DNA of 18,887 nt from a virus (Duplodnaviria; Heunggongvirae; Uroviricota; Caudoviricetes). The position numbers were made by a program, and so were the translations under genes. The notes beneath the pieces are model-generated. The model did no database searches. It was not told the DNA's origin and worked only from the letters and a program-made list of their open reading frames with translations. Below, piece by piece: positions 1-18,887 of the stretch (position 1 is its first letter; every line of letters begins with the position of its first letter). The stretch is taken from IMG/VR virus record IMGVR_UViG_2778261087_000008; one strand, given 5' to 3'.

Positions 1-2391
1 TTACTTCACATCATCCGGCAGCGCATAAGCCACAATATAGTCGCCCATCTTCGTACCAAATGAACCGTGACCGCCTGCGGAGATCACCACATACTGCTTA
101 CCATTCACTTCATAGGTCATTGGCGTAGCCTGACCACCCGCTGGTAAACGACCCTGCCACAGTTTTTCACCGTTGCTCATGTTGTAAGCGCGCAGGTAGT
201 TATCTGCCGTAGCGGCGATAAACAGCACGTTACCCGCCGTGGAGATTGGCCCGCCCAGCATCGGCATACCCATATTGAACGGCACCGGTACAGGCATCGG
301 GAACGGCATACTGTCCTGCGGCGTACCAATACGTTTCTTCCACACCACTTCATTGGTTTTCAGATCCAGCGCCGAGATATAACCCCATGCTGGCTGTTTA
401 CATGGCAGACCAAACGGTGAGAGGAACGGGTTGAGCGTGACACCATACGGTACACCGTACTGTGGCTGAATGCCGGATTCCGTACCCGTGCCTTTGGCAT
501 CTTTCGGCTGCTCCATCGGGTTACCAGGACCACGCGGGATCAGTTTCGAAACAAACGGCAGTGCCATTGGGTTGGCAATCGCCACTTCACGATTTGGATC
601 AACGGAAATCCCGCCCCATTCGAACATCCCCAGGTTACCCGGGAAGACCAGCGTACCCTGTTCAGATGGCGGGGTGAAAATGCCTTCATAGCGCATCTGG
701 TGGAACATCACGCGGCACACCAGTTGGTCAAACATGGTGGCTCCCCACATATCCGCACCGCTCAAATCTTTCGTCGGACGGAAGCTCAGTTCCGAGAATG
801 GTTGAGTAGGGGTAACGTAATCGCCTTTGGCAGCACCTTGGGGAACCGGTTTTTCCGGTGCCGGAACCACCAGTTCGCCATTACGACGATCGAGCACAAA
901 AATGTTGCCGGTTTTCGCCGGAGCGTAAATAACTGGCACTTTCTGACCATTAACGGTGATGTCCGCCAGCGTCGGCTGTGCCGGAAGATCCATATCCCAC
1001 AGGTCGTGGTGAACGGTCTGGTAGCTCCACGCCAGTTTCCCGGTAGTGGCATTCAGCGCCAGAATCGAGCTGGCATAACGTTCCTGTTCCGGTGTGCGGT
1101 TACCGCCCCAGATATCCGGCGTGGTCACGCCCATCGGCAGATACACCAGATCCAGCTTCGCGTCATAGGCCGCTGGTGCCCACGAGTTTGGCGAGTTAAA
1201 GGTAAAGGTGTGTTCGTCAGACGGGATTGCGTTCGGATCTTTCGCGCCGGGATCAAAAGCCCACAGCAGCTCCCCGGTGTTGACATCAAAACCACGGATC
1301 ACGCCAGACGTTTCGCGGGTTGAGAAGTTATCGGTAACTGAACCGGCCATCACGATGGTTTTATCGGTGATAATCGGTGGCGAAGTCGGTTCATACAGAC
1401 CCGGTTTGGTGTCTGGCATATTGCTTTGCAGATTGAGCACGCCTTTATTGGCGAAGGTTTCGCACAGTTTGCCGTTTTCAGCGTTAATCGCAATCAGTCG
1501 ACCATCATTGACCGGAAGAATGATACGACGCGGGCAATCCGCCATCACTTCCGGCGAAGCCGTTTCTGCTTTGGCTTCATGATAAGAGACGCCACGGCAG
1601 GTTACGTGCTGGAAAGACTCGTTAGTTTTCAGCTCAGGATCGTAATGCCATTTCTCTTTGCCGCTGGCGGCATCGAGCGCAAACAGGCGCTGGTGAGCGG
1701 TACACAGGTAAAGGGTGTCGCCCACTTTAATCGGCGTCACTTCATTGGTGATTTCGCCCGGATCGTTCGGCTGCTTCACATCGCCAGTACGGAACACCCA
1801 GGCTTCTTTCAGATTATGGACGTTATCGGCGTTAATTTGTTTCAGAGGTGAAAAGCGTTGACCTTCCTGATTGCGACCATAGGCAGGCCAGTCCTGATCG
1901 GCAACGGGTGAGATAGCTTCCGCAGGTGTGGCATTGGCGCTTAAGGTGCCGTTGATTTCCTGCGGATCGTTAAATCCGGCCCAGGTCAGGATACCACCGC
2001 TAATCAGTAGTGCCACCACCAGTGCGGCAACTGCGCCGCTGGCAGGAATGACCAGGCGACGCCAGACAAACGGCAGGATCAGCCAGATGCCGAAGAAGAC
2101 CAGAATGTCGCTGCGCGGAGTCAGCGCCCAGAAGTCGAAACCAACTTCCCAGACGCCCCAAATCATGGTGCCGAGCAGCAGGGCTGCGTACAGCCAAAGC
2201 GCGGCACGTTTACTGCGCCACAGCATCCAGGCGACGCCGAGCATCACAAGACCAGCGATAGGGTAGTACCAGGAGCCGCCAATCGCGACCAGCCAGCCTC
2301 CGCCAATGAGTAGATACAGCCCGCAAAGCGCTGCAAAAAGGGCTGTTAGCGTGACGAGTAATCGTCGCGAGCCTGTATTGTTAATTGCCAT
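1..2391 (-). CDS. gcd: PQQ-dependent membrane-bound glucose dehydrogenase (quinoprotein)
   Basis: Minus-strand frame beginning MAINNTGSRRLLVTL with an N-terminal multi-helix membrane anchor followed by a long soluble region; 796 aa plus stop equals 2391 nt; stop codon is tta at 1-3 on the plus strand. The track ORF (1..2409) starts 6 codons upstream of the recognised start. Confidence 0.93.
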   Translation of the reverse strand: MAINNTGSRRLLVTLTALFAALCGLYLLIGGGWLVAIGGSWYYPIAGLVMLGVAWMLWRSKRAALWLYAALLLGTMIWGVWEVGFDFWALTPRSDILVFFGIWLILPFVWRRLVIPASGAVAALVVALLISGGILTWAGFNDPQEINGTLSANATPAEAISPVADQDWPAYGRNQEGQRFSPLKQINADNVHNLKEAWVFRTGDVKQPNDPGEITNEVTPIKVGDTLYLCTAHQRLFALDAASGKEKWHYDPELKTNESFQHVTCRGVSYHEAKAETASPEVMADCPRRIILPVNDGRLIAINAENGKLCETFANKGVLNLQSNMPDTKPGLYEPTSPPIITDKTIVMAGSVTDNFSTRETSGVIRGFDVNTGELLWAFDPGAKDPNAIPSDEHTFTFNSPNSWAPAAYDAKLDLVYLPMGVTTPDIWGGNRTPEQERYASSILALNATTGKLAWSYQTVHHDLWDMDLPAQPTLADITVNGQKVPVIYAPAKTGNIFVLDRRNGELVVPAPEKPVPQGAAKGDYVTPTQPFSELSFRPTKDLSGADMWGATMFDQLVCRVMFHQMRYEGIFTPPSEQGTLVFPGNLGMFEWGGISVDPNREVAIANPMALPFVSKLIPRGPGNPMEQPKDAKGTGTESGIQPQYGVPYGVTLNPFLSPFGLPCKQPAWGYISALDLKTNEVVWKKRIGTPQDSMPFPMPVPVPFNMGMPMLGGPISTAGNVLFIAATADNYLRAYNMSNGEKLWQGRLPAGGQATPMTYEVNGKQYVVISAGGHGSFGTKMGDYIVAYALPDDVK

Positions 2392-2510
2392 AAAGAGACA
2401 CCATTTCAATTCATTAATATTTTAGTAGCAATTAATTATAGGTTTTAACATGTGTGATCGTCATCACAATTCGAGCTTTATTAACAGATTCCGCGAATGA
2501 ATAGTTTTAC

Positions 2511-2741: not shown

Positions 2742-2765
2742 CGGTGTATCACTCGGTGTATCACT
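2742..2765 (+). repeat. Tandem 12-bp repeat cggtgtatcact x2, candidate integrase arm-type binding sites (left arm)
   Basis: Two perfect tandem copies 22 bp upstream of the int start codon; the same motif recurs at 18263-18286 near the right end. Confidence 0.5.
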
Positions 2766-2787: not shown

Positions 2788-4011
2788 ATGGCTGGCACAA
2801 ACAAACTGAGCGACAAAAAGCTAAAAGCATTGCTGGGTTCTGAGCGTGAAGCGCCGATCATGATTGCCGATGGTGAGGGGCTAAGCGTTAAGGTCTCGAA
2901 GCAAGGTAACGTTAGCTGGGTATTTTCATACCGGTTGGGAGGAAGGGGTAGCAAACTCGAACGTTTAACGCTTGGCCGTTACCCTGATATGCCGCTAAAA
3001 CTTGCGCGAGAAAAGCGGGAACAGTGTCGCCAGTGGCTGGCTGGTGGGCTTGATCCGAAAACTGAGATTGAGCTGAGCACAGAAGAAACGCTTAAGCCTG
3101 TAACGGTTAAAGACGCCCTGGAATATTGGTTGGTGAATTACGCCAGGAGAAAGCGCAGTGATGAGGCGTTGGTGAGGGCGCAGCTACGCAAGCATATTTA
3201 CCCGCGCCTTGGTCGTTATCCGATCACCAGATGTGAAACCCGCCATTGGGTGGCCTGTTTTGACGAAATAAACCAGACTAAACCCATGACCGCCGGCCGC
3301 ATGTTCCAGATTTCTAAACAGGCGTTACGTTTCTGCAAGGTTCGCCGTTATGCTGCCAGTGATGCTCTGGCCTTTCTCACCATTCAGGATGTAGGCCAGC
3401 CATCTGGTCAACGTGATCGCGTATTGTCAGATAGCGAGCTGGCTGATGTGTGGCGCTGTACAGATAGCGATGATCAGCAGCCGTATTATTCACGTCTGCT
3501 CAAAATGCTGGTGCTTTTTGGTGCGCGAACGATGGAAGTTCGCCTTTCTCGATGGTCAGAGTGGGATTTTACATCGTGGATTTGGACTGTACCGAAAGAG
3601 CATAGCAAAACCCGAGAGAAAATCGTGAGGTCGATACCTGAAGCTATACGCCCGTGGCTGGAAGAGTTAAAGCGCGAGACAGGGAAAACAGGTTTGTTAC
3701 TGGGCGAAGATCGTACCCGTCAGGCTGTATCATTGAAAGGGCGCAGGCTTTTTAAAGATTTTCACCATAACGAGCCGTGGACACTTCACGATCTGCGTCG
3801 GACGTTTTCTACGGGGCTAAACAATATGGGTATAGCACCGCATATAGTCGAGCTGCTGTTGGGCCATGCCTTGCCGGGAGTTATGGCGATTTATAACCGT
3901 AGTCTTTACTTACCGGAGAAGCTGGACGCGCTGAACAAGTGGTATGACCGCTTAGAACTTCTCGCGGGTAATCACTCTAATATCGTTATTTTAAAGGCTG
4001 GTGAAAAATGA
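2788..4011 (+). CDS. int: Tyrosine site-specific integrase (P4-like phage integrase family)
   Basis: 407-aa ORF next to the left attachment site; C-terminal catalytic region contains HDLRRTF and LLGHALPGVMAIYNRS, consistent with the R..H-x-x-R..Y signature of tyrosine recombinases. Confidence 0.9.
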   Translation: MAGTNKLSDKKLKALLGSEREAPIMIADGEGLSVKVSKQGNVSWVFSYRLGGRGSKLERLTLGRYPDMPLKLAREKREQCRQWLAGGLDPKTEIELSTEETLKPVTVKDALEYWLVNYARRKRSDEALVRAQLRKHIYPRLGRYPITRCETRHWVACFDEINQTKPMTAGRMFQISKQALRFCKVRRYAASDALAFLTIQDVGQPSGQRDRVLSDSELADVWRCTDSDDQQPYYSRLLKMLVLFGARTMEVRLSRWSEWDFTSWIWTVPKEHSKTREKIVRSIPEAIRPWLEELKRETGKTGLLLGEDRTRQAVSLKGRRLFKDFHHNEPWTLHDLRRTFSTGLNNMGIAPHIVELLLGHALPGVMAIYNRSLYLPEKLDALNKWYDRLELLAGNHSNIVILKAGEK

Positions 4012-5211: not shown

Positions 5212-5895
5212 ATGAAAAATATTAATGCCCTTAACGGGCAGGGATTCGCTCACCCTGTTGCCAGTAAAAGCGATATTAGCGTGCAGCTTAAACAGCTTCC
5301 TGCCGTCGAATTTCACGGGCAACGCGTGGTGACGTTCGCAATGATTGATACCGCGCACCAGCGACCTAAAGACACGGCTAAAAAGACTTTTCAGCGTAAT
5401 CGTACTCGCTTCATTGATGGTGAGGACTTTTTTATTGTCGGCGCGTCAGAGGTCGAATGGGGAGGGGCTGGATATTTAGACAGGGGCATTAAACGCCCTG
5501 GCAAAAAAATGAACAGTCCGATACGTGGCCGCGTAACACTGATTACGGAATCAGGCTATCTGCTGCTGACCAAACCGTTTAACGATGATTTGGCCTGGCA
5601 GGTACAGCGCCAGCTCGTGAAAGCTTATTTCCGTTGCCCGGAGTTTGTCACTTTCCATCATGTGGATCTGCCGTCGCTCGAAGAACTGATCGCCATGCCG
5701 GTTACTGATGCGCAAAACGCCGTGACTCGTGCGGACAAGCATTCTAAGCAGTTTCATGGCTCACAGGGCAGTAATGGAATGAATCTCCGCAAGAAGGAAC
5801 TCAAAGTTCTGCGTCCGGCGGTACGGCTGGTAGATGCGATGGGGCAGATTGATTTCGATAAATATGAGTGGGAGGCGGCACATGATCGCGCATAA
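5212..5895 (+). CDS. ORF6N-domain phage regulatory protein (putative antirepressor-like)
   Basis: 227-aa ORF; N-terminal segment QRVVTFAMIDTAHQRPKDTAKKTFQRNRTRFIDGEDFFIV resembles the ORF6N/KilA-N-type consensus (..KRN.ERFPEDFMF..). Confidence 0.65.
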   Translation: MKNINALNGQGFAHPVASKSDISVQLKQLPAVEFHGQRVVTFAMIDTAHQRPKDTAKKTFQRNRTRFIDGEDFFIVGASEVEWGGAGYLDRGIKRPGKKMNSPIRGRVTLITESGYLLLTKPFNDDLAWQVQRQLVKAYFRCPEFVTFHHVDLPSLEELIAMPVTDAQNAVTRADKHSKQFHGSQGSNGMNLRKKELKVLRPAVRLVDAMGQIDFDKYEWEAAHDRA

Positions 5896-9565: not shown

Positions 9566-9589
9566 CTCCCCTGTGTGAGGTGAAAAGTT

Positions 9590-9711
9590 GCGGGTTATGC
9601 GGGTTATCCTGTGCATAAGTGAATTAACTGCATGAATAAAAAGGAAATCAATAACCCGCACGTAACCCGCAAAACGGCAGTTATAACCCGCAAAAGTGCG
9701 ATTATAACCCG
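9590..9711. repeat. Iteron cluster 1 (candidate replication origin): GCGGGTTAT x2 tandem, AT-rich spacer, ATAACCCGC x4 inverted
   Basis: Forward copies at 9590-9598 and 9599-9607; reverse copies at 9651, 9663, 9683 and 9703 with roughly 10-21 bp phasing; AT-rich segment between them; lies directly downstream of the primase-helicase gene. Confidence 0.65.
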
Positions 9712-9776
9712 CAGAATTTCACCGTAAGGGTGTAAACAAGCGTAACTATCAACGTTAAAACCGGAGAACAGACAGC

Positions 9777-14474: not shown

Positions 14475-14643
14475 ACAGGAGCAAACCAGGCTGATACGTG
14501 GACTGATAAGGCAGCGTGACACATGGAAGACACAGGAGACAGAGCACAAAGCCAACAGGACAGGGCGCACAAAACGCACCACAGCGAAGCGATTAACCGA
14601 CCGTGACCGCGAGGTCATGGAATGTTTTCGCAATCGCTGGTGA
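14458..14643 (+). CDS. Small basic hypothetical protein (61 aa), uncertain
   Basis: ORF overlapping the HNH 3' end in another frame; arginine/lysine-rich; no clear ribosome-binding site. Confidence 0.3.
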   Translation: MAMMTEQEQTRLIRGLIRQRDTWKTQETEHKANRTGRTKRTTAKRLTDRDREVMECFRNRW

Positions 14644-14651
14644 GGCCGTCA

Positions 14652-14711
14652 GAGGGGGTGGGGGTGGTTTTCAGGACGAAACCGTCCCTGCCGGACACCG
14701 ACCGCCCCCTC
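14652..14711. promoter_or_regulatory. G-rich nested inverted repeats upstream of terS (candidate cos / terminase recognition site)
   Basis: gagggggtgggggtgg ... ggacgaaaccgtcc ... ccccctc: outer arms GAGGGGG/CCCCCTC and inner arms ggacg/cgtcc, followed by an AT-rich tract (aatttttttgaaaataatt) before the terS ATG. Confidence 0.3.
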
Positions 14712-14762
14712 AAATTTTTGTGCACGGGAATTTTTTTGAAAATAATTGGGCGAAAAAAGAAC

Positions 14763-15119: not shown

Positions 15120-16764
15120 GTACGCAGAAGGCGTAAAAAACGGCAAAATTACGGCCTGTAAACGACTGAAACAGGCCGTTAAACGGTATTTTTCTGACCT
15201 TGAAAACCCCCTTTACACGTTCGATCCGGAGGTCGTGGAGCGGTTTATTGCCTTTTCCAGGGTGTGTCCGCACGTAAAAGGCGCAATGCGCGGTAGCCCC
15301 ATTGAGCTGGAGCCGTGGCAGCAGTTCGCCTTTGCGTGCATCCTGGGCTTTAAGGTTAAGGCCACCGGACGGCGCAAATACACCAGCGCATTCATTGAAG
15401 TACCGCGAAAAAATGCCAAATCCACGGTCGCCGCTATCCTGGCTAACTGGTTTCTGGTTATGGAAAACGGGCAGCAGGATATTTACACCGCCGCCGTGAG
15501 TCGTGATCAGGCGCGGATCGTGTTTGATGATGCGCGTCAGATGTGCCTTTTATCCCGACCGTTACGAAAGCGGGTAAATATTCAGGCACACAAGGTGATA
15601 CACCCGAAAACCAACAGCCTGTTAAAGCCACTGGCAGCAAAAGCGGCAACCATTGAAGGTACAAATCCGAGTCTTGCCATTGTGGATGAATATCACCTGC
15701 ACCCTGACAACGGGGTTTATTCCGCACTTGAGCTGGGGATGGGGGCGCGTCCGGAGGGGCTGTTATTTGCCATCACCACATCGGGGAGCAACGTTGTTTC
15801 AGCCTGTAAACAACACTATGACTATTGCTGTCAGATACTGGATGGTGAAGAGATGAACGAATCCATGTTCGTTCTGATTTACGAGCTGGATGATGAAAGC
15901 GAGGTTGACGATCCGGCGATGTGGATAAAGGCGAATCCAAATATCGATGTTTCCGTCGATCGTGAAAAACTGGCCTCAACCATCCAGAAAGCGCGGGGTA
16001 TTCCGTCGCAGTGGGTGGAAATGCTCACCAAGCGATTCAATATCTGGTGTCAGGGGGCTACGCCGTGGATGGGTAACGGTGCATGGGCGGAGTGCGCCGG
16101 AACGTTCGCGGAGGCGGATTTATACGGGCAGGAGTGCTACGCGGGGCTGGACTTATCATCAACCAGCGATATTTCCAGCGTGTGCTATGCCTTTCCGGTC
16201 GGTAAAAAGATTATGCTGGTTTCCCGTCACTATCTGCCGGAATTTCAGCTACAGAACCCCGCCAATAAAAACCGCGCCATCTATCGCCAGTGGGTAAAGG
16301 CGGGCTGGATACGCACAACACCGGGTGACTGCATTGATTATGACCGTATCCGTGATGACATCATGGCGGATGCAGAGAATTTCAATATCAGGCTGGTGGG
16401 CTTTGATACGTGGAACGCCACGCACCTGAGAACGCAGTTACAGGGGGCAGGCTTTGAGGTGGAGCCGTTCCCGCAAACCTACCTTCGTTTCAGTCCGGCG
16501 GCGAAATCGTTCGAGGTTTTTGTTAACCGGAAGGTGATTGTGCATCGTGGTGATCCGGTGCTGGCCTGGTCAATGAGTAATGTTGTGATGCAGAGTGACG
16601 CGAACGCCAATATCAAGCCGAACAAGAAAAAATCATCCAACAAGATAGACCCGAGCGTTGCGGCGCTGATGGCGTTTGGCACATTCCAGGCTGAGCATGA
16701 GGAATTTGCATTTGATATGAGCGACAGCCAGAAAGAGCGACTAGCGGCATTTGATGGGGTATGA
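15103..16764 (+). CDS. Terminase large subunit
   Basis: 553-aa ORF; ATPase region with Walker A-like VPRKNAKST and Walker B-like LAIVDEYH; apparent TTG start at 15103 (GAGGA 5 nt upstream) overlapping the terS 3' end by 17 nt. Confidence 0.88.
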   Translation: MTAWHEYAEGVKNGKITACKRLKQAVKRYFSDLENPLYTFDPEVVERFIAFSRVCPHVKGAMRGSPIELEPWQQFAFACILGFKVKATGRRKYTSAFIEVPRKNAKSTVAAILANWFLVMENGQQDIYTAAVSRDQARIVFDDARQMCLLSRPLRKRVNIQAHKVIHPKTNSLLKPLAAKAATIEGTNPSLAIVDEYHLHPDNGVYSALELGMGARPEGLLFAITTSGSNVVSACKQHYDYCCQILDGEEMNESMFVLIYELDDESEVDDPAMWIKANPNIDVSVDREKLASTIQKARGIPSQWVEMLTKRFNIWCQGATPWMGNGAWAECAGTFAEADLYGQECYAGLDLSSTSDISSVCYAFPVGKKIMLVSRHYLPEFQLQNPANKNRAIYRQWVKAGWIRTTPGDCIDYDRIRDDIMADAENFNIRLVGFDTWNATHLRTQLQGAGFEVEPFPQTYLRFSPAAKSFEVFVNRKVIVHRGDPVLAWSMSNVVMQSDANANIKPNKKKSSNKIDPSVAALMAFGTFQAEHEEFAFDMSDSQKERLAAFDGV

Positions 16765-17054
16765 CGAGAATGACTGAAACCGATCTACTAAAAATAATTC
16801 GCTGCGTTACCGGAGTCTGCCAGGCAACAGGCAAACCGGAGGCCAAGCAGCCGGATACCGTCACCGCTGAAAATTACGCGCGTGTGGTGGCTAAGGTGAT
16901 GCGCCGTGACGGTATTGAGCTTAACGGCGTGGATATGCGCAACATACGAACCAGAGTCCTTGAGTTGCTGGCATACCGTCGCCGTTCTCAACAACGGAGG
17001 GAGAGCGCGAAAAATAATTACCAGTGGAAGAAGCCGGAACGGTTGCGGCGGTAG
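16761..17054 (+). CDS. Hypothetical protein (97 aa), basic C-terminus
   Basis: ATG overlaps the terL stop (ATGA at 16761-16764); last ORF of the island; no motif recognised. Confidence 0.5.
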   Translation: MTRMTETDLLKIIRCVTGVCQATGKPEAKQPDTVTAENYARVVAKVMRRDGIELNGVDMRNIRTRVLELLAYRRRSQQRRESAKNNYQWKKPERLRR

Positions 17055-17055
17055 A

Positions 17056-17093
17056 TTCCTGATATTCAGGAAAACCACGAATCTGTGGGTTTT
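17056..17093 (+). terminator. Two tandem hairpins after the last island gene (candidate terminator)
   Basis: ttcctga-tat-tcaggaa (17056-17072) then aaaaccac-gaatct-gtgggtttt (17071-17092) with an A-tract before and T-tract after. Confidence 0.35.
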
Positions 17094-17393
17094 ACTGGCG
17101 CGGTTACGGCGGTGACACGCACCGAGGCAGAACAATTACCGTAGGTTAAAGCGACAGTATTCACACCAAAGGCAGAAATTAGCGGTTAACGTAACTGACT
17201 GATATTTTCAGGAACAGCCAACGGCTGAGGCCGGAGCTATAAGAATAGCTTTGGGTACAGTCCTCAGTTTTGAGGGATGTTAACCAACTGAATAATAAGC
17301 AAACCTCAAAATTGAGTTTTGTATCTGCCTGAGTTATTTCTGTGCTAACTTGTTGATATTCCAGACGGCCCAAAAATGGGTTGGCTGGTGGGT

Positions 17394-17511
17394 GAGTTGC
17401 AGATTTGCAACTCGACCATGAAACTACGGAAACTACCCGTAGTTTGGGTAGTAAGAGCAACACCCAGATTTTGGGGCTTACTCGCGATCCCCAAATAAAG
17501 GGGATCGGTGG
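17394..17511. repeat. 118-bp hairpin-dense repeat, copy 1
   Basis: Matches 17828-17945 at 113 of 118 positions; contains hairpins gagttgca-gatt-tgcaactc, aaactacgg-aaactac-ccgtagttt (overlapping the alternative ctaccc-gtagttt-gggtag) and gatcccc-aaataaa-ggggatc. Confidence 0.8.
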
Positions 17512-17541
17512 CATCACTGGCCCCACTTTCCTGATGTGTTT

Positions 17542-17693
17542 GCGGGTTATTTGGGAGAGGTTGCGGGTTATTTTGAATGACTTGCGGGTTACGATTTGGC
17601 TAACATTTGAACATGTCATTTTTCAACGCATTGATATTAAATAATAAAAAATACTTAGCACGCGAAGATAACCCGCTAACCCGCATAACCCGC
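17542..17693. repeat. Iteron cluster 2: GCGGGTTA(T) x3 phased at 21 bp, AT-rich spacer, ATAACCCGC x3 tandem inverted
   Basis: Forward copies at 17542, 17563 and 17584; AT-rich 17600-17665; reverse copies at 17668-17693. Same motif and architecture as cluster 1 at 9590-9711. Confidence 0.6.
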
Positions 17694-17827
17694 ACTGTTT
17701 TGTATATATATACGAAAAATTGCATTCAGGAGGGGTAGCAAAATCCCTACCGTCTCTTATCTCTTGGAGTGCCCGCCTCTTCGAATTTTAACCCCCGTGA
17801 AATTACAAAATTTCCCTGACTGATGGC

Positions 17828-17945
17828 GAGTTGCAGATTTGCAACTCGACTATGAAACTACGGAAACTACCCGTAGTTTGGGTAGTAAGAGTAACACCCA
17901 GATTTTGGGGCTTACTTGCGATACCCAAATACAGGGGATCGGTGG
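17828..17945. repeat. 118-bp hairpin-dense repeat, copy 2
   Basis: About 96% identical to 17394-17511; the five mismatches include taa to tac at the position of the copy-1 mini-ORF stop. Confidence 0.8.
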
Positions 17946-18262
17946 AAGAAATATCGTTTCTCATATGTGAGTACCGAGGGCGGAATTCCGCCTTCGGTTA
18001 CTTATTGTGCTCATGCACAGGGAGGGGCGGGTCAAATCTCTGTACCCTGACGTCTTCCGGACTGCCCGCTCCATCGATTTTTTATACCCGCGAAAAATGC
18101 TTCACGCTGGTGGGCATGATGCGTGGGGATGCTGATAATGGGTTATTGTGGGATAGATGTCTCATACAATAAGAGATTCATAATTTGCTTTTTAATACTG
18201 TTATACTCGCCGCCTTTCTACCGTGCTCATGCTTTCGCATATTTTCGGCTTTGTGCAATAAT

Positions 18263-18286
18263 CCGTATATCACTCGGTGTATCACT
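18263..18286 (+). repeat. Repeat ccgtatatcact + cggtgtatcact, candidate integrase arm-type binding sites (right arm)
   Basis: Shares 19 consecutive bp (tatcactcggtgtatcact) with 2747-2765; 64 bp upstream of the attR core. Confidence 0.5.
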
Positions 18287-18350: not shown

Positions 18351-18369
18351 ATGAAACATATTGTAGAAG
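18351..18369 (+). repeat. attR core (first 19 nt of hpt)
   Basis: atgaaacatattgtagaag; direct repeat of 2597-2615 with one mismatch. Confidence 0.7.
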
Positions 18370-18887
18370 TAATGATCCCCGAAGCGGAGATTAAAGCGCG
18401 TATCGCCGAACTGGGTCGTCAGATTACTGAGCGTTACAAAGACAGCGGCAGCGATATGGTGCTGGTTGGTCTGCTGCGTGGCTCATTTATGTTTATGGCG
18501 GACCTGTGCCGTGAAGTTCAGGTATCTCATGAAGTCGACTTTATGACCGCCTCCAGCTACGGTAGCGGCATGTCCACCACCCGTGATGTGAAAATCCTCA
18601 AAGATCTGGATGAAGATATCCGTGGCAAGGACGTGCTGATTGTTGAAGATATCATCGACTCGGGGAATACACTGTCGAAAGTGCGTGAGATCTTAAGCCT
18701 GCGCGAACCGAAGTCGCTGGCGATTTGTACGCTGCTGGATAAACCGTCCCGTCGTGAAGTGAACGTCCCGGTTGAATTTATCGGTTTCTCGATCCCGGAT
18801 GAGTTTGTGGTGGGTTACGGCATTGATTACGCACAGCGTTACCGTCATCTGCCGTATATCGGCAAAGTGATTCTGCTGGACGAGTAA
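18351..18887 (+). CDS. hpt: Hypoxanthine phosphoribosyltransferase
   Basis: 178-aa [25 protein letters not shown]... with PRPP-binding motif [14 protein letters not shown]; complete, ends taa at 18885-18887. Confidence 0.93.

Follow-up and report, generated by a model that had tools for sequence, protein, structure and literature searches.

An optional, strongly conserved non-coding module in the tails of Escherichia coli phage satellites and its doubling in one lineage

The stretch of 18,887 nucleotides analysed here (hereafter, the window) extends from gcd to hpt, and the 15.5-kb island between these two genes is a capsid-forming PICI satellite inserted at this site (Table 1). As in other capsid-forming PICIs, an integrase gene is combined with direct att repeats and a size in the range of ~10-20 kb, and an origin with two iteron sets flanking an AT-rich stretch follows the primase-replicase gene. 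The layout of this origin is the one described for PICIs (PMC6092414). In the RefSeq annotation of the near-identical KSC9 island, the early genes encode the integrase, regulators, a DUF927 primase and SSB; the later genes encode the major capsid protein, prohead protease, portal, connector, HNH, a P27-family TerS and TerL; and the last gene encodes a 93-aa hypothetical protein. By this annotation, the satellite has its own capsid and packaging genes and no tail genes, which again is characteristic of capsid-forming PICIs, for which such a gene set has been described (10.1101/2022.09.08.507074). Pfam matches in the island are to Terminase_4, HNH and DUF927.

The last gene of the packaging operon, orf93, belongs to a satellite-specific family. 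The predicted structure of its product (pLDDT 63) is too poor for a fold search; the arginine-rich tail may resemble lambda N. An RfaH ops-like sequence, GGCGGTAG, at the orf93 stop is not conserved in the L094 type and is probably a coding coincidence. Downstream of orf93 lies a 1.2-kb non-coding tail that contains both copies of the repeated unit considered here; given the positions of the att cores, both copies are therefore inside the island. The original prediction regarded this tail as the place where satellites usually carry accessory genes; what it holds instead is an iteron cluster, two cos-like sites, Chi and attR.

Table 1. Positions of the genes, repeat copies, hairpins and other features in the window.
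Feature	Position	Strand or copy	Description
gcd	1-2409	-	left flank of the island
attL core	2747-2765	+	TATCACTCGGTGTATCACT; 19-nt direct repeat
int	2788-4011		integrase
Primary origin	9588-9716	+	just 3' of the DUF927 primase gene; TTGCGGGTTA x2, AT-rich stretch, ATAACCCGCA x4 inverted
cos0	14640-14750	+	third cos-like site, between the HNH and TerS genes
orf93	16761-17054	+	final gene of the packaging operon; phrog_1561, no Pfam match, arginine-rich C-terminus
Weak terminator-like hairpin	17075-17088		between orf93 and copy 1
Hairpin H0	17367-17382	+	stem sequence covaries between satellites
Chi	17384-17391	+	GCTGGTGG; directly abuts copy 1
Unit, copy 1	17391-17511	+	H1, four half-sites, H4
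Hairpin H1	17394-17413	copy 1	GAGTTGCA-GATT-TGCAACTC
9-bp-stem hairpin	17421-17445	copy 1	AAACTACGG-AAACTAC-CCGTAGTTT; alternative pairing CTACCC/GGGTAG
Half-sites	17421-17454	copy 1	AAACTAC/AAACTAC/GTAGTTT/GTAGTAA; four, 9-bp phasing
Hairpin H4	17485-17507	copy 1	CGATCCCC-N7-GGGGATCG
Cassette between copies	17512-17824	+	313 bp; origin-like cluster and cosA
Tail iteron cluster	17540-17591; 17668-17694		TTGCGGGTTA x3 direct; AT-rich stretch; TAACCCGC x3 inverted
cosA	about 17725-17810	+	diverged phiP27-type cos-like site, just before copy 2
cosA cut-site homologue	17770-17779		TGCCCGCCTC
Unit, copy 2	17825-17945	+	115/121 identical to copy 1; one A.G mismatch in the H4 stem
Hairpin H5	17947-17961	+	small hairpin 3' of copy 2
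Palindrome T	17973-17998	+	26 bp, terminator-like here; conserved with the unit in most satellites
cosB	about 18020-18100	+	81-95% identical to the cos region of phiP27, SfII, SfV, SfIV and ST64B
Counterpart of phiP27 cos in cosB	18063-18072		aligned with the annotated 10-nt cos of phiP27, CGCCCGCCCC
Chi	18106-18113	+	just right of cosB; kept in related satellite tails
attR core	18268-18286	+	TATCACTCGGTGTATCACT; identical to attL over 19 nt
hpt	18351-18887		right flank of the island

The two copies of the unit form a gapless direct repeat of 121 nt with a spacing of 434 nt and 95% identity. The original prediction had delimited a repeat of 118 bp with 113 matching positions, a count that direct comparison confirms, and had named three hairpins, all of which are found in the unit. 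A chance origin of the repeat is excluded because the unit has matches in 664-706 genomes of E. coli, with E values from 1e-40 to 1e-56. Folding z-scores range from -6.1 to -9.1 for the copies, on either strand, and none of 200 shuffled sequences folds equally well. The differences between the copies include 17417 in a linker, 17458 and 17483 in weak helices, 17489, and 17498 in a loop. The suggestion that the mismatches preserve the pairing holds for 17458 and 17483, both of which change C-G to U.G, and for the loop position 17498, but not for 17489, where the change breaks the 7-bp stem of copy 2 (GATACCC against GGGGATC, with an A.G mismatch).

The segment between the copies reads as a second origin-like cluster joined to cosA, and its iteron is the same as that of the primary origin. 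The third cos-like site, cos0, occupies the position that is canonical for HK97-like phages and is kept in every capsid-forming PICI examined, with 99% identity in three of them (L001, L004 and L095) and 83% in two that are EcCIEDL933-like (L005 and L006). Certain relatives carry lambda-type and phiP27-type cos sites together.

The repeat as such is a by-product of a single insertion by recombination into a mosaic region rich in Chi: the unit is doubled here because the 313-bp cassette, an origin-like iteron cluster plus a cos-like site, recombined into the tail. In single-unit relatives, the sequence found here left of copy 1 leads into one unit, which is followed by the sequence found here right of copy 2. 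The iteron-plus-cosA segment is present alone in two other satellite tails (L003 and L004), and in a third satellite (L007), the iteron part of the cassette adjoins the primary origin. At the left junction, the heptamer TCGGTGG both ends the unit and begins the cassette; at the right junction, a Chi-like CTG(G/A)TGG (GCTGGTGG) is common to the end of the cassette and the sequence before the unit. Among the 138 instances of the unit gathered from E. coli genomes, viral contigs and metagenomic contigs, a unit followed by the cassette always comes with a second unit. The doubled layout is limited to one lineage, represented in 4-5 of 5426 complete E. coli genomes and in a few metagenome and viral contigs, with about 10 contigs of this layout among the 138 instances; having two copies is not a property of the element, and the position and context of copy 2 are those of the single unit in most satellites.

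A nucleotide search with the unit, a check proposed in the original prediction, was productive: among the 5426 complete E. coli genomes, 706 were positive in blastn and 664 in megablast, with a median of one copy per genome and almost all copies chromosomal. Three plasmid records contain the unit, all of them non-mobilizable, and one of these is a 10.8-kb circular PICI. No match was found in the phages searched. Where upstream sequence is available among the 138 instances, the unit nearly always lies 3' of an orf93-family gene and has the same orientation as that gene. The commonest order of elements is orf93, H0, Chi, unit, H5, T, phiP27-type cos and att. Orf93 is followed by the unit, H5-T and cosB in about 50 instances, by the unit and H5-T in about 25, and by the unit alone in about 35, the EcCIEDL933 type among them. 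Mutation of a gene designated 'hypothetical gene 1792' is reported to impair the transfer of EcCIEDL933.

Satellites that carry the unit vary in integration site, integrase and replicase, the latter being either DUF927, with TTGCGGGTTA iterons, or a P4-type primase, with CTGTTCACC iterons. Their packaging genes likewise differ, comprising a complete module for capsid and terminase, DUF1441 together with a protease-capsid fusion, or capsid, decoration protein and TerS, and some satellites are helper-embedded within a lambdoid capsid gene. The unit is optional, because only 22 of the 50 orf93 loci with downstream sequence carry it (28 do not) and a covariance model of the unit detected no remote homologues in 32 other satellite tails. 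When one genome per species was scanned for H1 plus AAACTAC, the only matches were chance ones in unrelated phyla. Comparison with Rfam 15 gave no match at the gathering threshold and only noise at E up to 10, and no tRNA or tmRNA was found. The unit is, then, a non-coding module that PICI-type phage satellites of E. coli may or may not carry, that is very strongly conserved and that follows orf93 in a fixed orientation; both this identity of the element and the cause of its doubling are well supported.

Conservation was compared in pairs of satellites whose orf93 DNA is less than 85% identical. In these pairs, third codon positions of orf93 are 67% identical, the first 85 nt of the unit 97%, and the last 36 nt 87%. 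Across 41 distinct variants, no variation occurs in most of H1 or in the 3' half-sites, GTAGTTT and GTAGTAA. The unit is thus under strong purifying selection on its primary sequence, and this constraint is the best evidence that it has a function. The first half-site arm, AAACTACGG, is deleted in the L095-type and in the L094/L096-type, leaving the palindrome AAACTAC-NN-GTAGTTT, which is perfect in the deletion variants, with CC, AG or CT as the central dinucleotide.

The same conservation figures bear on an explanation that we consider unlikely, namely, that the unit is functionless, a recombination scar or homology anchor that spread recently and was homogenised by gene conversion between satellites. 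Satellite tails are indeed mosaics of serial orf93 3'-end remnants, hairpins and Chi sites, with a Chi density of 2.2 per kb in 37 distinct tails; truncated units break at CCAGATTTTGGGG; the adjoining H5-T and cosB segments, too, show about 97% identity from one satellite to another; and the unit is optional. However, the 5' 85 nt are about 97% identical even where all the surroundings differ, as in the EcCIEDL933 type, and conservation of this 5' part clearly exceeds that of the 3' part and of the surrounding remnant modules. Moreover, a helper-embedded version that is only 78% identical keeps H1, the palindrome core and H4, the latter with compensatory changes.

Our preferred reading, made at low confidence and with an assigned probability of about 0.4, is that the 3' end of the packaging operon carries, in the unit, a non-coding RNA module, either a cis element or a processed small RNA. 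Upon induction of the satellite, transcription of the packaging operon would read through into the unit, and the transcript would fold into H1, H2 and H4. The folded RNA could act in cis, stabilising or insulating the transcript as an element of its 3' end, ahead of cos and attP; alternatively, it could be processed into a small RNA derived from the 3' UTR. A partner RNA or protein would bind the invariant stretch GUAGUUUGGGUAGUAAGAG...AACAC. In keeping with this proposal, the unit lies 3' of the last gene of the operon in the same orientation and is more conserved than the coding sequence, as expected of a 3'-UTR element. A consensus scan detected no promoter-like site in the unit or immediately flanking it, which fits read-through from the operon. 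Small RNAs of satellites have a precedent in Vibrio PLE (10.1101/2022.04.08.487710). In the main layout, the terminator-like palindrome T comes after the unit; in L094, this palindrome lacks a T-run and does not score as a terminator, and the scan finds no terminator after the unit in an EcCIEDL933-type satellite (L005). In the window, the weak terminator-like hairpin between orf93 and copy 1 also counts against the RNA reading. The unit is present in only 22 of the 50 orf93 loci and is therefore not needed for ending the operon.

The RNA-structure evidence for the unit, judged from comparison of the variants, is weak. Compensatory changes affect 2 of 35 pairs, both in H4, where two pairs are changed on both sides (C-G to U-A and A-U to C-G). 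H1 and H2 are almost invariant, and the first arm of H2 is dispensable; H3 is broken in one lineage, the L094 type (helper-embedded, 78% identical). In the consensus fold, covariation contributes only -0.28 kcal/mol, and within the unit it is confined to H4, such that a covariance check on the helices supports H4 but none of the others. Outside the unit, the pairing of H0 is kept with different stems (GCCCA/TGGGT, ACGCA/TGCGT and GTGCA/TGCAC). Among the one-sided changes within the unit, five pairs show C to U opposite G, with G.U on the plus strand as the result, and only one pair favours the minus strand; over all tail hairpins, G.T mismatches number 34 vs 36, an uninformative count without strand bias. 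The loops and linkers of the unit are as invariant as the stems, which exceeds what a fold requires, and many palindromes of the tail continue without mismatch across the centre, which suggests symmetry at the DNA level.

The original prediction of a structured RNA or protein-recognition module rather than coding sequence thus stands as far as the non-coding character and the strong fold z-scores are concerned, with covariation supporting only H4. The mutually exclusive pairings that it described, in contrast, are not conserved as a switch: the AAACTACGG arm is lost in two lineages and the 2:4 pairing is broken in 5 of the 41 variants. The alternative pairings arise because four half-sites are phased every 9 bp.

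That phasing belongs to the main competing explanation, possible but on balance doubtful, in which the unit is a double-stranded DNA recognition module whose half-sites and palindromes are bound by a satellite protein, possibly the basic orf93 product, or by a host protein. The bound array would be AAACTAC-GG-AAACTAC-CC-GTAGTTT-GG-GTAGTAA, and, with the same doubtful standing, the complex would act in packaging or cos usage, as cosB of EcCICFT073 does. Conservation of the primary sequence, loops and linkers included, the symmetry of the half-sites with their 9-bp phasing, and the perfect AAACTAC-NN-GTAGTTT that the deletion variants keep despite the changing centre all argue for a DNA site, and the nearly equal numbers of G.T mismatches on the two strands of the tail hairpins agree with it. 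The unit also adjoins orf93 and, in about half of the instances, lies ~75 bp from a phiP27-type cos, and a satellite-specific cosB read by Rpp-TerS provides a precedent (PMC6739421). Several observations nevertheless do not fit. The HK97 TerS site is at +15 to +29, downstream of the cut (PMC11331095), but the unit is located on the upstream side. In EcCIEDL933-type and helper-embedded satellites, the unit is present but the tail has no cos; cos lies 1-2.5 kb away, upstream of terS. Of the half-sites, the third and fourth are invariant but the first and second are variable, which is unexpected for a symmetric site, and seven different palindromes would require several different proteins. With regard to the orf93 product as the binding protein, its structure model is of low confidence, and 28 of the 50 orf93 loci lack the unit, so that orf93 is independent of it.

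Two further explanations compete with the RNA module. In one, which we regard as very unlikely, the unit is a cluster of single-stranded DNA hairpins that serves as a priming or second-strand signal in satellite replication. Several different hairpins that fold about equally on both strands, the lack of strand bias in the tail hairpins, and the primase and SSB encoded by all unit-bearing satellites examined would be compatible with such a signal. The unit, however, is uncorrelated with the type of replicase, occurring with both the TTGCGGGTTA and the CTGTTCACC iteron systems; it lies 8 kb from the origin and is optional; and no similarity to any known element was found. In the other, which appears extremely improbable, the unit encodes a small protein, MKLRKLPVVWVVR(A/V)TPRFWGLLAIPK, from an internal ATG. 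In most variants, the frame that starts at this ATG is open; the 9-nt deletion preserves it, and some of the changes are synonymous (CTA to TTA, CTC to CTT, ATC to ATA). But the stop of the 26-codon frame varies, giving 13, 23, 26, 62 or 113 codons; the ATG is lost in one variant, is not preceded by a Shine-Dalgarno sequence and lies directly 3' of a stable hairpin; and several substitutions are non-conservative, for example, L to P and K to I. The variable stop, the lost ATG and the missing ribosome-binding site bear out the initial assignment of the unit as non-coding.

Other candidate roles were considered and rejected. The unit is not a cos accessory site in general, given that it is carried by EcCIEDL933-type and helper-embedded satellites, whose cos is upstream of terS. 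In TerS-type satellites, too, the position upstream of terS is that of the cos matching the satellite's own terminase: L007 has a lambda-type cos, GGGCGGCGACCT, at 5762, and in L094 the segment 7838-7916 shares 82% identity with the cos found in its own helper prophage. Where cosB is present, the unit lies 75-190 bp upstream of it. Judged against phage cos of the phiP27/HK97 type, the unit has no phage match; it is cosB, cosA and cos0 nearby that show this resemblance. A replicase binding site was rejected because the unit contains neither TTGCGGGTTA nor CTGTTCACC and occurs with both types, and integrase arm sites because both the distance to att and the integrase type vary. The unit has no homology to plasmid transfer origins and is absent from plasmid transfer regions, which speaks against an oriT.

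We found no description of the unit in the literature searched, and a full-text search for subsequences of the unit returned no match; the tail is treated solely as the location of cos in three previous studies (PMC6092414, PMC6739421, 10.1101/2022.07.18.500453). Yet about 1/8 of the complete E. coli genomes carry the unit, and its conservation exceeds that of the adjacent protein genes. It is common to three satellite families, capsid-forming, Rpp-type and TerS-type/helper-embedded, which differ in packaging strategy, so that a function in expression, packaging or interference with the helper would apply broadly. The question why two different cos sites are present in some PICIs has been raised previously (PMC6739421), and the three cos-like sites, the second origin-like cluster and the Chi-rich mosaic tails described here bear on it. 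Should the unit be only a recombination scar, it would still be a useful marker of satellite tails. At the far end of the range lies the idea, quite unlikely in our estimate, that the unit is an undescribed regulatory RNA of satellites, either satellite-specific or directed against the helper or the host, accompanied by a mobile 313-bp 'origin plus cos' mini-cassette. In that event, a regulatory RNA would be made from the end of the packaging operon upon induction, and recombination at the unit could let the cassette loop out or pass from one satellite tail to another, as a minimal hitch-hiker on a satellite.

Compared with known systems, the unit resembles attenuators and riboswitches in that its AAACTAC segments 1:3 and 2:4 pair in a mutually exclusive manner, but two lineages have lost segment 1, and neither of the two pairings persists throughout the variants. 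Like REP/BIME and ERIC elements, the unit is short, palindromic and non-coding, and occurs in many copies across genomes; unlike them, it is confined to satellites, usually present once per genome, and constant in gene context and orientation, and it has no sequence similarity to either repeat class, as the original prediction had indicated. With enterobacterial 3'-UTR elements and small RNAs, which are the closest analogues of the RNA module favoured here, the unit shares the location at the 3' end of an operon and a conservation greater than that of the upstream coding sequence. A terminator-like hairpin follows the unit in the main layout, but the unit has no terminator of its own and no Rfam homology. 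The cassette has the layout of PICI origins and the island's own iteron, as in the ori/crr pair of P4, where two iteron clusters serve one initiator; this likeness extends to the cassette only, the unit having iterons of neither replicase type. The remaining parallel is with the tail cos of Gram-negative PICIs. EcCICFT073 has cos1 and cos2 in its tail, with a satellite-specific cosB that is read by Rpp-TerS (PMC6092414, PMC6739421). The unit differs in that it occurs in no phage cos, lies upstream of the cut and is also found in satellites without a tail cos, and the cos type here is that of phiP27/HK97, not lambda. The place is nonetheless the same, between the last packaging gene and attR, with more than one cos-like site, and in both cases a satellite-specific sequence is found beside a helper-type cut site.

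The tails of these satellites, that is, the non-coding stretch between orf93 (the last gene of the packaging operon) or its homologs and attR, are mosaics of repeated modules of approximately 50 nt, as seen in the window and in related loci L188-L255. Each module combines a stretch resembling the 3' end of orf93 (GGCGGTAAC..GTTGATATTCC) with a short, A/T-centred palindrome, the stem of which varies from module to module, and with a Chi site or a sequence close to Chi. The tail of the window also contains a remnant of the end of orf93. These modules look like scars of serial recombination. The density of Chi is high in the island, and above all in the satellite tails, where 56 sites, in both orientations, were found in 25.6 kb over 37 distinct tails, approximately 10 times the usual density in E. 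coli.

The orf93 family, which consists of 866 homologs, does not match Pfam, and its single phage hit is weak (a Klebsiella phage, 46% identity). The C-terminus of these proteins is a nearly invariant arginine-rich helix, YRRRSQQRRESAKNTYQWKKPERLRR, and nucleic acid binding is plausible. The context of the orf93 stop codon, GGCGGTAG-AT-TC, agrees at 9 of the 10 specified positions with the RfaH ops element, GGCGGTAGnnTG. Because this match is absent from the helper-embedded relatives, the satellites located inside a lambdoid capsid gene, it is probably incidental and produced by the Arg-Arg-stop codons.

The island contains three cos-like sites of the phiP27/HK97 type, one in the canonical position and two in the tail. 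In some of the relatives, a lambda-type cosN (GGGCGGCGACCT) is located 5' of the terS or DUF1441 gene, and a phiP27-type cos is located in the tail; thus, L007 and L002 are single satellites with two cos sites that differ in helper type. Between the tail iterons and the first tail cos-like site (cosA), there is a palindrome with a (TA)5 centre, TTGTATATATATACGA, that resembles a LexA box whose outer triplets are weakened. The identical sequence precedes a gene in L007, where it may be a promoter. A promoter-like site (TTCGCA, 17 nt, TGcAATAAT), with a -10 of the extended type, is located directly left of the attR core and directed into hpt. The island may substitute for the native hpt promoter displaced by its insertion.

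Coordinates of features in the window and in related satellite loci
Feature	Locus	Position	Remark
orf93 C-terminal helix	window	16970-17051	
orf93 stop-codon context	window	17047-17058	ops-like
Tail modules	window	17055-17391	3' of orf93
orf93-end remnant	window	17101-17113	
Chi, + strand	window	3040, 5972, 9806, 12019, 12271, 13505, 16392, 17384, 18106	
Chi, - strand	window		four sites
cos-like site	window	14640-14750	canonical, between HNH and TerS genes
cos-like site	window	about 17725-17810	tail
cos-like site	window	18020-18100	tail
Lambda-type cosN	L007	5762	
phiP27-type cos	L007	7237-7320	tail
Lambda-type cosN	L002	about 6646	
phiP27-type cos	L002	8192-8274	tail
(TA)5 palindrome	window	17698-17720	
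Promoter-like site	window	18234-18262	
Iteron cluster 1	window	9588-9716	3' of primase gene
Iteron cluster 2	window	17540-17694	tail, 8 kb from cluster 1
CTGTTCACC-iteron origin	L002	3150-3400	
CTGTTCACC-iteron origin	L094	4840-5090	
CTGTTCACC-iteron origin	L095	600-850	

A circular PICI was also identified, NZ_CP148328.1 (10,790 bp), deposited as a non-mobilizable plasmid, with the order int, DUF1441, orf93 and the 121-bp hairpin-rich repeat unit; this is presumably an excised satellite captured in the assembly.

In satellites carrying a gene of the 'DNA primase family', the origins are made of CTGTTCACC iterons, which appear to correspond to the type I repeat of P4. In the island, there are two origin-like iteron clusters that share the iteron TTGCGGGTTA, an arrangement that recalls the ori/crr pair of P4.
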